Translations under genes and position numbers: made by a program | Notes under the pieces: model-generated | What the model was told of the DNA's origin: nothing | Database searches by the model: none | What the model saw: only the letters and a program-made list of their open reading frames with translations | In this document: positions 18,722 through 64,000 of the stretch, piece after piece | Position numbering within the stretch: position 1 is the stretch's first letter | How the letters are laid out: every line of letters begins with the position of its first letter | IMG/VR virus record: IMGVR_UViG_2923073944_000003 | Location: 1-64,000 of that record | Source: an uncultured virus (IMG/VR IMGVR_UViG_2923073944_000003) | Taxonomy: Duplodnaviria > Heunggongvirae > Uroviricota > Caudoviricetes | DNA: 64,000 bases | Reading direction: 5' to 3' (one strand)

Positions 18722-19079
18722 TAAGTTGTACCTCCCGATTAATCTTCTGCAAGTCTTGTTTTGTTCCACTTAGTTCAAACTTTAATAACAATGGTACATG
18801 GAACATTGCTGAAAGCTTGTCCCCAGCTAAACCATAGTTATCACCCCAAACCTTGTTACCACTCACAACAACTCCTTTTATTTTATTTTTATTCTTAATA
18901 ATAAAATGCCAAGTCCTTTCAGGTACTTCCCCAAAGCCTATCGTATATGTAATATGTATGAATTCTTCTTCAACAATTAAGTCATCTGTTATTTCAATGA
19001 CATCGAAGTTTAACTCCCTTTGTAATGCTTGAGCAAACCTTTTCACATTACCTGTCTTGCTTTCATATGTAATAATCAA
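18684..19079 (-). CDS. nrdI: Flavodoxin-like NrdI
   Basis: YESKTGNVKRF, SGNKVWG, KFELSG. Confidence 0.95.
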   Translation of the reverse strand: MIITYESKTGNVKRFAQALQRELNFDVIEITDDLIVEEEFIHITYTIGFGEVPERTWHFIIKNKNKIKGVVVSGNKVWGDNYGLAGDKLSAMFHVPLLLKFELSGTKQDLQKINREVQLIDKHNTKVDQAQ

Positions 19080-19432
19080 TATTCTTTATATTCCCCGTTA
19101 ACTAAGCTATTCGTGGTTGTTTCTGCTTCATTTTCAGCATAATGGAATGCTTCAGACATTTCTAAATTGATCTCAGCCATCTCAGCATAGCCTTTGGCCA
19201 TCTTAGCTCTAAGAGGGGATAAGTCCTCCATCTCCAAATCAACTGGTACATATTTATGCTTTTGACTCTGCGGGATAACCATTTGGTTGCCATCTAAGTC
19301 AGTTGCAATAAGCTCTCCCTTAAAAACCATAAACGACTCACCATTTTGCAAATGTATTTTCGTATTATCTTTCGCATCATCTAAATTCACCAAGTCACTA
19401 CGCTTCACGTATAACTGTTTAGTAGCTCCCAT
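19076..19432 (-). CDS. yosL: YosL-like protein with MazE-mimic C-terminus
   Basis: MAKGYAEMAEINLEMSEAFHYAENEAE; position upstream of nrdI. Confidence 0.8.
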   Translation of the reverse strand: MGATKQLYVKRSDLVNLDDAKDNTKIHLQNGESFMVFKGELIATDLDGNQMVIPQSQKHKYVPVDLEMEDLSPLRAKMAKGYAEMAEINLEMSEAFHYAENEAETTTNSLVNGEYKEY

Positions 19433-60249: not shown

Positions 60250-60405
60250 TTAGGATACCTTTGCTTTATATTTTGATCTAACCATATCTGCTTCATTTTC
60301 AAGATGATTATCTTCCTGGGAAATTTCTAAGTTAAGGTCTCCCATTTCCATGTATCCCTTAGCCATATCCTCATAAGAAAGTGATTGTCCGAAATGCTTT
60401 TTCAT
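60250..60405 (-). CDS. aimX: AimX, 51-aa MazE-mimic
   Basis: Hand-translated MKKHFGQSLSYEDMAKGYMEMGDLNLEISQEDNHLENEADMVRSKYKAKVS. Confidence 0.88.
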   Translation of the reverse strand: MKKHFGQSLSYEDMAKGYMEMGDLNLEISQEDNHLENEADMVRSKYKAKVS

Positions 60406-60532: not shown

Positions 60533-60664
60533 TTAAGCTCCCCGAATTGCACTTGCTACAGAGATCTCATCAGAAGCTGATGCCGTATTAACTGAATGTT
60601 GACCTGCAATGAATGAAATTGCTAATGATGCTAAAATGGCTGTACCGAAAATAATTTTTTTCAT
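60533..60664 (-). CDS. aimP: Arbitrium peptide precursor, mature SAIRGA
   Basis: Hand-translated MKKIIFGTAILASLAISFIAGQHSVNTASASDEISVASAIRGA. Confidence 0.95.
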   Translation of the reverse strand: MKKIIFGTAILASLAISFIAGQHSVNTASASDEISVASAIRGA

Positions 60665-60693
60665 TAAATTCACCTCCTTTCAAGTACTAAATT

Positions 60694-61833
60694 CTAAATT
60701 AAATTTAGCAGCTCCGGGTCACAGCCTAATTTTTCGAGTTCTATTATTGCCAATTGGATAAAATATTTATCATCTGATTCTTTAAAATATGTTATTGATT
60801 TAAAAAAATCAGATTTTTGCCTCGATATTAAACCTTTATAATAAAAATAAAATCCTAATTCATTTTCATCTTGATCTCTTTTTGATAAGCTTTCTAATAA
60901 TTCGTTAGCCTTGTCGAGATTATTACTTTTTATGTAATAAAAAGCCCTTAGCTGTTGATATTTGATTTCATTTGATTCATAGTTAACCCATAGATTTTCC
61001 TTGTTCCATACATTAGCTAAGAAGCAAAGAGCGCCATTTAGCATTTCTTCATGAGTATCATTCAGAACATACTTCTTTGCCTCAACATACGCCAGCATAG
61101 CTTCTTCATAATTTTCGAAAATTAGGGTATTACCTATTGTCAGATGTGCAAAGAAACATATTCGGTTCACATTGGACTGCATTATTGCAATATTTGAATG
61201 TTTCCTTGCTTCGATTAAATTGTTTTCGTTTAAGCTTATATTCGCTTTTAACATTGACACTCTACTTTTGTACGAATCTTTTATAAATCCTTCTGGTAAG
61301 CTTTTAAAATCTAAAAGTGTTAAGGTGCTTTTCATCAATCCGAACTCACCAATATTCAAGTATTTATACATCAGCATTGCATCTGAAAAAAATGACATTT
61401 CTGGAGCTTTACATCTCCCACATTCTCTTATTGCTTCTGGTATTGAGATTTCGTTTTTATATAGCTTTCTATGTATGTTGTAGATGTTACCCCATTCTTG
61501 ACTTGTTGTGTTTTTTGAGTGGCATAAATTTAAAATAATCTTGTCTGTTAATGAATCCCATTGATTGATATCGGAGTATTCAACAGATTGTCTAGCGCAT
61601 TTTTTGTTGGGATCCAGTGATAAGAAGTAATCACTTAGAAGCTGCTCCTCATTATCAGGAAACAAGCTTTTAACAATATTAATTAAACCGCCTAAGTTGT
61701 CCATTTCTTTCTCTGGGGTGTTGATGAATTTGTAAAAACCATTAACCTTTTCGTACCCTGCTATTTTTGAGAGTTTCGCTGCGAGCTGGCTGTCTTTTTC
61801 ACATTCATTCTTAATCATCTGCTTAAGATTCAT
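60694..61833 (-). CDS. aimR: Arbitrium receptor
   Basis: 379-aa HTH plus TPR protein directly upstream of aimP. Confidence 0.95.
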   Translation of the reverse strand: MNLKQMIKNECEKDSQLAAKLSKIAGYEKVNGFYKFINTPEKEMDNLGGLINIVKSLFPDNEEQLLSDYFLSLDPNKKCARQSVEYSDINQWDSLTDKIILNLCHSKNTTSQEWGNIYNIHRKLYKNEISIPEAIRECGRCKAPEMSFFSDAMLMYKYLNIGEFGLMKSTLTLLDFKSLPEGFIKDSYKSRVSMLKANISLNENNLIEARKHSNIAIMQSNVNRICFFAHLTIGNTLIFENYEEAMLAYVEAKKYVLNDTHEEMLNGALCFLANVWNKENLWVNYESNEIKYQQLRAFYYIKSNNLDKANELLESLSKRDQDENELGFYFYYKGLISRQKSDFFKSITYFKESDDKYFIQLAIIELEKLGCDPELLNLI

Positions 61834-61874
61834 TGGTTACTCCACCCCTTCCCAACTAATGTTCCCTTGTTTAT

Positions 61875-61924
61875 AATATACATTAGAGTTGTCAGAATTA
61901 CAAGTATTTATTTTATTTTTATGC
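61875..61924 (-). promoter_or_regulatory. aimR sigA promoter with repeated element
   Basis: GCATAAAAATAAAATAAATAC-TTGTAA-17 nt-TATATT. Confidence 0.7.
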
Positions 61925-62017
61925 TAATTATTTTTTAAGGAATACTTATCTGTTTAAAATTCGTATTTTATAAAGACACAATTTTTCTTCACAACTGTGT
62001 CTTTTATTATTGTAATT

Positions 62018-63067
62018 TTATTTAGCTAAGGCTTCTTCTAATTTAATATCTAAATCTGTATTTTGATTAAGATTAGTAATAGCAATAACCTTTCCAACGG
62101 AGGTCATTCTAAACTCAGGAAGAGTAGTTCTGTCCCATATTTCATTTACTTTACGGATACTTTCATATCTGCTTATAGCCAAACTTATTTCATTTTCTGA
62201 TTTAAGATGGTTTTTATAAAAATCAATAATCTTACTTTGATGCTGAATAAACACTGAACCCAAAATTTCAATTTTATCTAATAAATGAAAAAATCCCTGA
62301 ACATTGAACTTATATAAATTATTTTCGTCTGAAAGAGGCGTAACCATTTCTTTTAGGATATTTGAATCTAGATAAGGAAATGTCTTAAGATAGTGCTCAA
62401 GATCAAAACCAGCTTGAAATATCCCACCGTATGCCATGTGAATCAAATAAGAAAAATGCTCATTTTGACCTTTTGTTAAGTTCTCGCATTTACAATACTC
62501 TAAATGCATCATCTGGTTTAATGAAGGGATTTTTTTTGGCAGAAACGGCACTGCATATTTATTTAACAAACAATTTAATTCTCCTATTGTTTGGCACGGA
62601 AAAGTTACTTCAGATAAAAGGAAGTGCAGACTTAGTAAATTAATGTGTTCAGTATTTAGCTTAGAAGAAACTTCTATTGCTTCATTGAGAACTACCTGTT
62701 TAAACGATCTATCCTTTTCTTTAGTCCGTTCAACTAATAATTCTTTTAACATCTGGTATAGATATTTTTCGCCAGACCTTACAAAATCCCTTTGTGCTAC
62801 ATAAATTATATATTGCAAGTCAGGATCAGAAAACCGATTAGGTAAATTGGGATTCTTAGAAAATTGTTCTAGAAAACCTTCAATTAAAGTATTTGCTCTT
62901 TCTGTAGCAATCTTATTAGCTTCTTGAGAAAGCTTATAAAAATTTTCTTTGAAAATATCGTTACATATTTGTTTTGCATCTCCATATGATAGCCCCGTTA
63001 CATGTACAGTCTCTCCTTGGATATTGACGGAGTGATCTCCTCCACTTTGCGAGCAAGTCTTTTTCAT
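62018..63067 (-). CDS. LPO_1073/Vpar_1526-like protein with N-terminal QSGGDHSVNIQG motif
   Basis: GLSYGDAKQIC..FKENFYKL..ERA; DPDLQY; family call from memory. Confidence 0.65.
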   Translation of the reverse strand: MKKTCSQSGGDHSVNIQGETVHVTGLSYGDAKQICNDIFKENFYKLSQEANKIATERANTLIEGFLEQFSKNPNLPNRFSDPDLQYIIYVAQRDFVRSGEKYLYQMLKELLVERTKEKDRSFKQVVLNEAIEVSSKLNTEHINLLSLHFLLSEVTFPCQTIGELNCLLNKYAVPFLPKKIPSLNQMMHLEYCKCENLTKGQNEHFSYLIHMAYGGIFQAGFDLEHYLKTFPYLDSNILKEMVTPLSDENNLYKFNVQGFFHLLDKIEILGSVFIQHQSKIIDFYKNHLKSENEISLAISRYESIRKVNEIWDRTTLPEFRMTSVGKVIAITNLNQNTDLDIKLEEALAK

Positions 63068-63274
63068 CTATTTATCACCCTTGTTTTTAAAATCATTTAT
63101 TTCTACATTACACCCTTGAATATTAACTGAATTGTCCCCGCCTTGTTGATTATATTTTGTATCATGAATGTCTTCCTTTTTTGTTTTCTTCCACTTTAAG
63201 CATATCCAACCTACAATAGGTAGACCGACACCGCTAAAAATCCACTGAATATTATTATATAAAAAGTCAATCAA
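63068..63274 (-). CDS. 68-aa single-helix membrane protein with C-terminal QQGGDNSVNIQG motif
   Basis: WIFSGVG hydrophobic helix then basic patch; RBS AAGGAAGG. Confidence 0.75.
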   Translation of the reverse strand: MIDFLYNNIQWIFSGVGLPIVGWICLKWKKTKKEDIHDTKYNQQGGDNSVNIQGCNVEINDFKNKGDK

Positions 63275-63316
63275 AATCTAACCTTCCTTTCTTGAATACG
63301 AGTTAATTTCATCCGT

Positions 63317-63448
63317 TCACAAGGTATTCCATTCAACATATTCAAATCGCTGCTGATAAAGGTCTTCCAGGATTGTGGCCCATTCAATCCATCCATCCGC
63401 AACAATGCTTTTTTTCTCTCCATCCTCAATCCATTCAATCCAGTACAC
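63317..63448 (-). CDS. yopG: 43-aa Trp-rich protein
   Basis: Hand-translated MYWIEWIEDGEKKSIVADGWIEWATILEDLYQQRFEYVEWNTL; RBS GAGGAG. Confidence 0.7.
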   Translation of the reverse strand: MYWIEWIEDGEKKSIVADGWIEWATILEDLYQQRFEYVEWNTL

Positions 63449-63459
63449 CTGAACACTCC

Positions 63460-63675
63460 TCACCTAGTAATAACTTCAATTTGCCTTATGGCAGAAGTGG
63501 CTTTAAACTCCGTATGTAGCTCATTTGCGATCACTAAAGCTTCTGACATTGTAGTGAACTTAGAAGCGCCATGAAGCCCCTTAGATGTCTTATAACCACT
63601 TCCATCTAATTTAAATGACTTGAAGTAATCATCATTTTCAAATTGAATAACAAAAAAGTTATCGATAACCGGCAT
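63460..63675 (-). CDS. yopF: Hypothetical protein
   Basis: Synteny. Confidence 0.65.
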   Translation of the reverse strand: MPVIDNFFVIQFENDDYFKSFKLDGSGYKTSKGLHGASKFTTMSEALVIANELHTEFKATSAIRQIEVITR

Positions 63676-63677
63676 AG

Positions 63678-63929
63678 CTAACTCCTCTTCAGCAGACCAG
63701 CAATTTTTATGGCCAGTGGCAGCAATCCAATTAATATGTAAAACACCATGATATTTATTTTATTCTTAAAGAACAGTTCAATCATATTCTGCTCCATACC
63801 TGGTGAAAATGAATCAATCAGTTCCTGTTTAAATTCTTCATCGTAAACCTGATCAACAAATAAAGCTTTAAACCCAGATAGAAAGCCAATACCCAGCCAG
63901 AGTATTAAGAAATATGCTATTCCAATCAA
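63678..63929 (-). CDS. yopE: Small membrane protein
   Basis: Two hydrophobic helices; synteny. Confidence 0.65.
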   Translation of the reverse strand: MIGIAYFLILWLGIGFLSGFKALFVDQVYDEEFKQELIDSFSPGMEQNMIELFFKNKINIMVFYILIGLLPLAIKIAGLLKRS

Positions 63930-64000
63930 ATTAAAGCCCTCCTTATATACATCGTCTGGTATTATAGTAGTGTTAAATACTTTGTGTAGGTGAAATTTAA

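Follow-up and report, generated by a model that had tools for sequence, protein, structure and literature searches.

Organization of the Locus

The window, i.e., the complete stretch of 64,000 nucleotides analyzed here, comprises the first 64 kb of a 123-kb SPbeta-type provirus record. Near its end, two collinear genes on the minus strand encode a 68-aa small membrane protein and a 349-aa protein, with the TAG of the small gene directly abutting the ATG of the large gene and a purine-rich stretch resembling a ribosome binding site 5′ of both. The original prediction had described two abutting reading frames with matching peptides at their junction, and both reading frames and both peptides are indeed present. 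The features of the locus are, in order of transcription:

63317–63463, minus strand: yopG ortholog, 84% amino acid identity to SPbeta YopG, upstream boundary of the slot
63068–63274, minus strand: gene of the 68-aa small membrane protein (TTG start), putative effector
63197–63250, minus strand: predicted transmembrane helix, residues 9–26 of the small protein (Kyte-Doolittle hydropathy 1.56 for a 17-mer to 2.02 for a 15-mer)
63095–63154, minus strand: motif copy 1, residues 41–60 of the small protein (31.1 bits)
62018–63067, minus strand: gene of the 349-aa LPO_1073/Vpar_1526 family protein, putative sensor
62996–63055, minus strand: motif copy 2, residues 5–24 of the large protein (conservation in the family alignment)
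62036–62995, minus strand: LPO_1073 domain with a long helix (residues 28–69), a helical bundle and a C-terminal LTSVG strand-helix
60694–61833, minus strand: aimR (NF038310, PF22871; 74% identity to phi3T AimR), downstream boundary of the slot

The pair had been assigned to the variable slot between yopG and aimR, which holds yopH-J in SPbeta, and this assignment is borne out by the identity of both boundary genes, the break in DNA similarity and the gene content of relatives. Similarity to phi3T, BUCT082, BUCT083 and SPbetaL3 ends at position 61936 and restarts at 63327. In five annotated relatives the slot contains different genes; SPbeta has yopH (SieB family), yopI and yopJ in it, and the genes of phi3T, BUCT082, BUCT083 and SPbetaL3 differ as well. 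No terminators were found within 61800–64000 and promoter-like sites are not in excess there. In two IMG/VR proviruses the module is 100% identical at the DNA level, yet their AimR is only 73% identical to that of the window, so the module is not tied to one arbitrium allele. When the region 60533–61833 was compared with relatives including L001/L002, aimR and aimP were found to differ next to an identical or nearly identical module, so the arbitrium genes have been swapped alongside a constant module.

The Two Proteins

The 349-aa protein is a member of the LPO_1073/Vpar_1526 family (NF045477, 220.1 bits against a cut-off of 45, model positions 1–254 of 257) and also matches PF28206. Its N-terminus reads MKKTCSQSGGDHSVNIQGETVHVT; the NCBIfam model NF045477 begins after this motif, at residue 25. 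A hydropathy scan gave no transmembrane segment (highest 19-residue value 1.18). The AlphaFold2 model is mostly helical with a mean pLDDT of 92.9, and the motif is modeled as coil with a pLDDT of about 74. Foldseek comparison of this model with the PDB and BFVD gave nothing at E ≤ 0.001. VIA-align returned a designed helical bundle as best match (Z 8.1 over 75 residues) and, only weakly at Z 5.2, two small winged-helix proteins, and an hmmsearch of PDB sequences with LPO_1073 gave no convincing match. Structure and PDB-sequence comparison revealed no catalytic fold, though the lack of a structural match does not make the LPO_1073 fold new. The 349-aa protein matches no P-loop family and no PADLOC model, and there is no P-loop family among the 25 listed of the 111 families matched by 110 homologs.

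A relationship of LPO_1073 to Abi-alpha and DUF2806 was suggested by eye. According to language-model (Atlas) features, DUF2806 is the nearest other named family (0.76, a lead only), and one of 110 family members matches Abi_alpha (PF14337) at E 0.0068. Profile comparison by hhalign with PF14337 and PF10987 gave no significant support (probability 0.2–0.3% with shallow profiles of 4–10 sequences, and a reversed control scored higher).

The 68-aa protein consists of a WxFSG-type helix, a basic linker and a C-terminal motif, YNQQGGDNSVNIQGCNVEIN, followed by a short basic tail. The 40 residues ahead of the motif hold one hydrophobic helix, and a Bell/HeLo-type helical bundle (about 80–100 aa) is absent. 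There are no K/R residues before the helix and five after it, where KWKKTKK follows, and the tail is predicted to lie inside from this asymmetry. No Pfam or NCBIfam family is matched, and a weak match to the PADLOC profile PDC-M43A covers positions 2–57 of 203 (E 1.5e-6). The small protein aligns with 29 partner proteins; used as a single query it found no longer homolog, whereas an alignment of the partners did find some.

The Shared Motif

Both copies conform to the consensus QxQxxGDxSxNxQ, which is common to the whole family, spans 14–20 residues and occurs in single copy. When the best 14-mer match between the last 45 residues of one ORF and the first 45 of another is taken (BLOSUM62), the window pair scores 52, compared to a mean of 14.3 (sd 4.7) over 12,432 ordered pairs of 112 window ORFs, and a single pair of two other phage genes scores higher (55). 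A profile built only from homologous large-protein N-termini singles out the two copies from the entire 123-kb provirus, at 32.1 and 31.1 bits compared to 9.7 for the next site. The match is far beyond chance. Codon comparison of the two copies agrees with the original prediction that 7 of the 9 identical residues of GGD/SVNIQG use different codons; over all 20 aligned residues, 11 are identical and 4 of these share a codon. The further claim that the match is held at the protein level and does not stem from a recent DNA duplication was also upheld, since across the family 240 of 618 identical residues have the same codon and 273 are expected from codon usage. With fewer shared codons than codon usage predicts, recent duplication or gene conversion is excluded as the general cause.

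Among 50%-identity representatives, the large protein has 1,832 relatives at E ≤ 0.001, and the motif is found in 142 of the best 150 of them, a proportion raised by a query that contained the motif and favored its carriers. In a 110-sequence family alignment, the motif columns rank among the most conserved (Q7 in 103, G10 in 105, S13 in 104, N15 in 101 and Q17 in 107 of the 110 sequences). The distribution of the family is patchy, with two of 401 Bacilli genomes having it, one of which is the seed, while the module itself was found in more than ten phyla. For protein P0004, no relatives were found in viral contigs. A short LPO_1073 form of about 285 aa (P0007, P0247, L211, L213) misses some 65 residues of the C-terminal half and keeps motif and partner.

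Pairing and Co-variation Across Loci

Pairing was counted in two sets of loci that overlap partly and are both biased to near-consensus members. Set 1 was collected with a 16-sequence near-consensus alignment as query and comprises the best 80 of 112 confirmed GTDB loci plus seven viral loci, of which two without upstream DNA were left out. The last 50 residues of each upstream ORF were scored with a motif profile built from LPO_1073 N-termini only. In 84 of the resulting 85 loci, including the frameshifted L073, a motif-bearing ORF ends at the start of the LPO_1073 gene with scores of 8.0–39.6, compared to at most 4.2 bits for background ORF tails in the same loci (n = 2,966 ORFs). In the 85th locus (L081) the motif ORF precedes a tandem LPO_1073 copy. 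In this Streptomyces locus (L081:1973-4568), a single small membrane gene stands ahead of two LPO_1073 genes, both of which carry the motif. Set 2 consists of the best 80 of at least 296 metagenome loci and one Bacilli locus, with at least 300 nt upstream in 72 loci. Here, a motif-bearing upstream gene is present in 67 of 72, the frameshifted L192 among them. Of the five misses, three are fusions (in two cases possibly an indel of the assembly), one is a three-gene cassette and one scores at threshold.

The partners are typically 58–90 aa long from their likely start. Their helices number one, of the NKEWIFSGIG type seen in the window, or two, and in one case four. In 83 of 84 partners K/R residues are more numerous behind the last helix than ahead of it, so the motif faces the cytoplasm. 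Compared to the LPO domain, the motif is enriched in Q (15.5 vs. 4.9%), N (9.5 vs. 5.5%), G (14.6 vs. 5.2%), V (9.3 vs. 5.5%) and I (8.6 vs. 6.9%), and depleted in K (4.4 vs. 6.7%), P (0.1 vs. 2.4%) and L (1.8 vs. 11.4%).

Two classes of motif can be distinguished, GGDNSTNIQ-like (A) and VAEGSTAIQ-like (B), and co-variation of the two copies in homologous pairs, the check proposed with the original prediction, is clearly visible at this level: partner and large protein belong to the same class in 80 of 82 pairs of set 1 and in 72 of 73 pairs of set 2. Eight loci do not enter the set 1 count: the two that have no upstream DNA, two that duplicate the window module, two that are wrongly anchored, a frameshifted one and a tandem one. 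Cognate motifs have a BLOSUM score of 38.8 against 25.5 for non-cognate ones at 70% dereplication, above all 10,000 permutations, and they are closer than shuffled pairings at every dereplication level. The cognate excess persists inside each class in set 1. For set 2, the p value is < 0.0001 in class A and, with just 6 pairs, 0.045 in class B. Disjoint sister-pair contrasts are significant in set 1 (25 positive, 9 negative, p 0.009), weaker within class (p 0.03–0.11) and not significant in set 2 (15 positive, 8 negative, p 0.21; 17 positive, 7 negative, p 0.06). Part of the co-variation reflects shared descent, since class B is mostly one clade and the two motifs, within about 100 nt of each other, are near enough for block recombination. 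The placement of class B in one clade comes from a quick, unrefined tree in which the window row forms a long branch, and the tree was used for this point only. Both helix types pair with class A motifs, which indicates that the anchor has changed while the motif stayed. Judged from these comparisons, the pair is a real, widespread and co-evolving two-gene module.

The same data bear on whether the tail of the small gene might simply be a functionless leftover of a duplicated start of the large gene. The copies are adjacent and collinear, as a vestige would be, but they are kept in nearly all loci across phyla, with invariant Q positions in either copy and shared codons no more frequent than expected. 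This explanation is largely refuted by conservation and we regard it as extremely improbable.

Fusions and Exchange of Modules

The sequences compared show that either part of the module, membrane or large, can be exchanged. Natural helix–LPO_1073 fusions carry two, one or no motif copies; a single-sequence structure model of one such fusion was unusable (pLDDT 35.7). In three representatives an HNH-like domain, assigned by one Pfam HNH match below cut-off and by eye in the other two, replaces the helix and motif of LPO_1073. HNH-like and two-helix domains fused to LPO_1073 come with no motif or just a remnant of it. The motif recurs in all three products of a gene row on a metagenome contig (L156:481-3053): first a membrane protein extended at its C-terminus, then an Abi_alpha protein (PF14337, E 7.6e-18), and last an LPO_1073 protein. 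The Abi_alpha protein begins with the motif, and the GLSYxDAK start of LPO_1073 is likewise present in it.

When the small-protein alignment was used in turn as query against viral contigs and about 1,000 genomes, further LPO_1073 pairs and four other arrangements were returned. In L220:129-1704 (minus strand), the gene after a WxFSG peptide encodes an unrelated protein of 461 aa that matches no known family and begins with the motif, in a private NFQVGG variant found in the peptide as well (score 66 vs. at most 43 for other pairings); this 461-aa protein has no relatives in viral contigs, plasmids or PDB sequences. L227 is a helix-motif-TPR fusion. In viral contigs L216/L217:2489-4599, the stop codon of a 62-aa WxFSG peptide, whose tail gives no motif score, overlaps the start of an NB-ARC gene, possibly as a split or frameshifted NLR. 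In L230:1405-2248, a WxFSG-like peptide and the product of the next gene seem, by eye, to share another tag (AERDIKITGG / AGRDIELIGG). The NKEWIFSGIG helix itself heads NACHT/FGE-sulfatase, SPFH, TPR, HTH, receiver-like (by eye), PDC-M43A and many unnamed proteins (P0157–P0245), of which the NACHT/FGE-sulfatase, SPFH and many unnamed ones lack the motif. This helix may be a general N-terminal membrane module of defense proteins.

Defense Context

An Escherichia coli pair (L237:3725-4837; NZ_CP148400.1) consists of an 81-aa two-helix partner and a 285-aa LPO_1073 protein with class B motifs, abuts a P2-type portal gene and is present in 6 of 5,426 complete genomes. The gpA-gpQ interval of P2 is an anti-phage hotspot according to Rousset et al. 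(2022; PMC9122126), and both proteins of the E. coli pair, WP_000687980 and WP_000490525, appear at least 14 times in its Table S5A, labeled "hypothetical." Across loci, 30 of 235 neighboring ORFs match PADLOC models at E ≤ 1e-8 compared to 5 of 120 control genes (p 0.009), a modest enrichment among neighbors that are not independent, with about 87% of them lacking a match and some matches being generic. The 235 were those scanned of 299 picked, leaving out short, partner, antisense and window-like ORFs, and the control genes were taken from four of the host genomes, in 20 regions chosen arbitrarily. The matches include Lamassu, Thoeris and restriction-modification genes. SPbeta, for its part, has a SieB gene in the yopG-aimR slot.

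Comparison With Known Systems

The closest counterpart is the Bab/Agp antiphage system with motif BASS11 (Ibarlosa et al., bioRxiv 10.1101/2024.11.07.622273), in which infection leads a large non-NLR protein to convert the motif carried by a small protein acting at the membrane. Both systems consist of adjacent prophage genes in a defense hotspot, with a C-terminal motif on the small membrane-acting protein and a matching N-terminal motif on the large non-NLR protein. Yet, Bab is a folded Babybell bundle of ~80 aa and Agp a TPR-GreA/B-PIN protein of 1,094 aa, compared to a bare one- or two-helix anchor and an LPO_1073 protein of about 285–350 aa here. Neither a TPR-GreA/B-PIN sensor nor a Babybell effector was detected in the window pair by family matches. 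The Q-to-DN spacing of BASS11 (Q92, D99 and N100, taken from the text of that paper alone) is one residue longer than the closest register of the present motif.

The Bell/NLR pairs with BASS1–10 (Dyrka et al., bioRxiv 10.1101/2020.01.06.895854), as far as the portion consulted describes them, resemble the present pair in having collinear, abutting genes whose products carry a common motif, one at its C-terminus and the other at its N-terminus, in a motif length of ~20–25 aa, and in combining split pairs joined by the motif, all-in-one fusions and exchangeable effectors. Composition is also alike, with Q, N, G, V and I up and K, P and L down, relative to a UniProt background for BASS and to the LPO domain here. 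The window pair differs by lacking both a Bell domain and NB-ARC/NACHT, and BASS1–10 occur mostly in multicellular Actinobacteria and Cyanobacteria, whereas the present pair is common in unicellular Pseudomonadota, Bacteroidota and Bacillota. By eye, the present consensus matches neither one BASS3 peptide nor the few BASS11 residues to which it was compared.

The core tetrad of RHIM motifs is (I/V)Q(I/V/L/C)G. The present motif resembles RHIM, PP and BASS3 in being short and rich in Q, G, V and I, and the tetrad occurs in 33 of 155 small partners. It is found in none of 82 large-protein motifs and is absent from both window copies, which read IQGC and IQGE. The original reading of the two genes as a signaling pair with a RHIM-like motif stands in part: conservation, co-variation at the protein level, BASS-like composition, cytoplasmic motifs and defense hotspots speak for a signaling pair, but the RHIM-like label has to be dropped for the window motif. 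By the features tested, the pair is not RHIM, Bell/NLR or Bab/Agp.

Abi-alpha (DUF4393/PF14337) acts as a single gene, with no partner or shared motif described in the accessible part of the report (PMC6356687), and Belisama (DUF2806) is anti-phage according to the excerpt consulted (bioRxiv 10.1101/2024.07.02.601686). Both resemble the large protein in size and in being borne by prophages or cassettes, and one Abi_alpha protein carries the present motif beside an LPO_1073 gene. The PADLOC candidate PDC-M43A has a WxFSG-type membrane helix at its N-terminus in common with the small protein (E 1.5e-6 to 2.3e-9), but the match covers just the first ~57 of its 203 profile positions, and the large protein has no PADLOC counterpart. 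Our literature search matched one proteome table and gave no described function or partner of the LPO_1073/Vpar_1526 family. The full-text literature searched, with subscription papers mostly outside its scope, held no description of the pair either, and BASS and PADLOC candidate tables may bear on its novelty. In the part of a 2026 review that was consulted, Bell/NLR pairs are the only BASS pairs covered.

Proposed Mechanism and Alternatives

We propose, at a probability of about 0.5 and on sequence grounds, that the two genes form a prophage-borne, BASS-like amyloid-signaling module for abortive infection, composed of a non-NLR sensor and a bare membrane-helix effector. Its elements differ in strength. 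The two motifs very likely bind each other and the module is quite likely anti-phage, both judged from sequence; binding by templated cross-beta, amyloid-type assembly would be fairly probable by analogy with Bab/Agp and HET-S/NWD2. The course of events we regard as likely starts with the LPO_1073 protein, which would sense a phage cue and oligomerize. The oligomer would nucleate assembly of the motif, and the membrane helices, clustered by this assembly, would form a lesion, with death or arrest of the cell as the outcome. Before infection the effector would be kept off by its dispersal in the membrane and it would be switched on through clustering alone; clustering would have to be the activation route since the effector has no folded bundle to hide its helix. 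LPO_1073 is given the role of sensor because effectors, either a TM or an HNH-like domain, are swapped at its N-terminus, and the helix that of effector because of its position in NLR-type proteins.

Against an amyloid module stand the short, single-copy motif, the missing RHIM tetrad in the window copies, the absence of a Bell/HeLo bundle and the helix–LPO_1073 fusions, which are equally explained by a constitutive tether. In that case a small, finite complex of beta-strands or solenoid rungs would anchor LPO_1073 to the inner membrane, and the pair would be a split form of the fusions, still probably defensive but not a prion-like switch. Such an arrangement, which we hold to be rather unlikely, fits with fusions carrying one, two or no motif copies, with an effector that has no auto-inhibitory domain, and with co-variation, which needs binding only. 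Weak support comes from the reported presence of Vpar_1526 in whole-cell, outer-membrane and surface fractions of Veillonella parvula, in a dataset with many reported false positives (PMC5491611, accessible part). The HNH-like/LPO_1073 fusions argue against it, as they have no membrane anchor and LPO_1073 thus does not always need a membrane location; one small gene ahead of two motif-bearing partners (L081, L156) suits a polymer better than a 1:1 complex, and composition and gene layout match BASS.

Toxin-antitoxin loci commonly place a small gene ahead of a large one. The roles might be reversed, with LPO_1073 as an Abi-alpha-like toxic effector and the membrane peptide as a sensor, for instance of DNA ejection, holin insertion or depolarization, or as an antitoxin that uses the motif to sequester LPO_1073. 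Since Abi-alpha acts alone, the large protein could itself be the toxic part. The feature-based proximity to DUF2806, the motif on a true Abi_alpha protein (L156) and the standing of Belisama and Abi-alpha as tested anti-phage genes point in the same direction. The helix, however, holds the N-terminal effector position in a NACHT protein, precedes an NB-ARC gene and gives way to HNH-like domains in fusions with LPO_1073. Structure and PDB-sequence comparison showed no catalytic fold in LPO_1073, and the Abi-alpha homology has no statistical support. Reversed roles are unlikely in our view. Quite improbable is a non-abortive function as a lysogeny-related or superinfection-exclusion accessory, e.g., with a link to arbitrium or as a block to DNA entry at the membrane. 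The module does abut aimR, and the SPbeta slot holds a membrane gene of the SieB family; however, the same module sits beside divergent AimR alleles, occurs in more than ten phyla, where arbitrium would not be anticipated, and is missing from other SPbeta-like phages.

Under the amyloid-signaling reading, the module might tentatively be viewed as part of a widespread new family of amyloid-signaling immunity in unicellular bacteria, in which one motif serves as a plug-in connector of bare helices to several non-NLR sensors. LPO_1073, with more than 1,800 clusters at 50% identity, could possibly be one of these sensors and an Abi-alpha protein another, alongside further ones. If so, LPO_1073 gains a function, a route of Abi-alpha-type proteins to the membrane is suggested, and the WxFSG helix would be a MADA/MEPIS-like cell-death module. 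Among the papers found, bacterial anti-phage amyloid signaling is demonstrated for one system, Bab/Agp. With the present pair, such signaling would reach more than ten phyla through a large family that lacks annotation, and its effector would be the smallest possible, a 60–85-aa membrane peptide often annotated as hypothetical. The pair is directly testable in Bacillus subtilis as a 1.26-kb fragment from an SPbeta-like prophage and as the 1.1-kb E. coli version listed in the P2 hotspot tables, and the natural motif variants provide ready matched and mismatched pairs for specificity.

A minor observation concerns the adjoining arbitrium genes. A 51-aa gene after aimP, at the position of AimX (60250–60405, minus strand), has a weak match to MazE (E 0.0024), and the 14-residue start of its product recurs near the end of a 118-aa ORF (19076–19432, minus strand); aimX of phi3T is annotated as similar to yosL.
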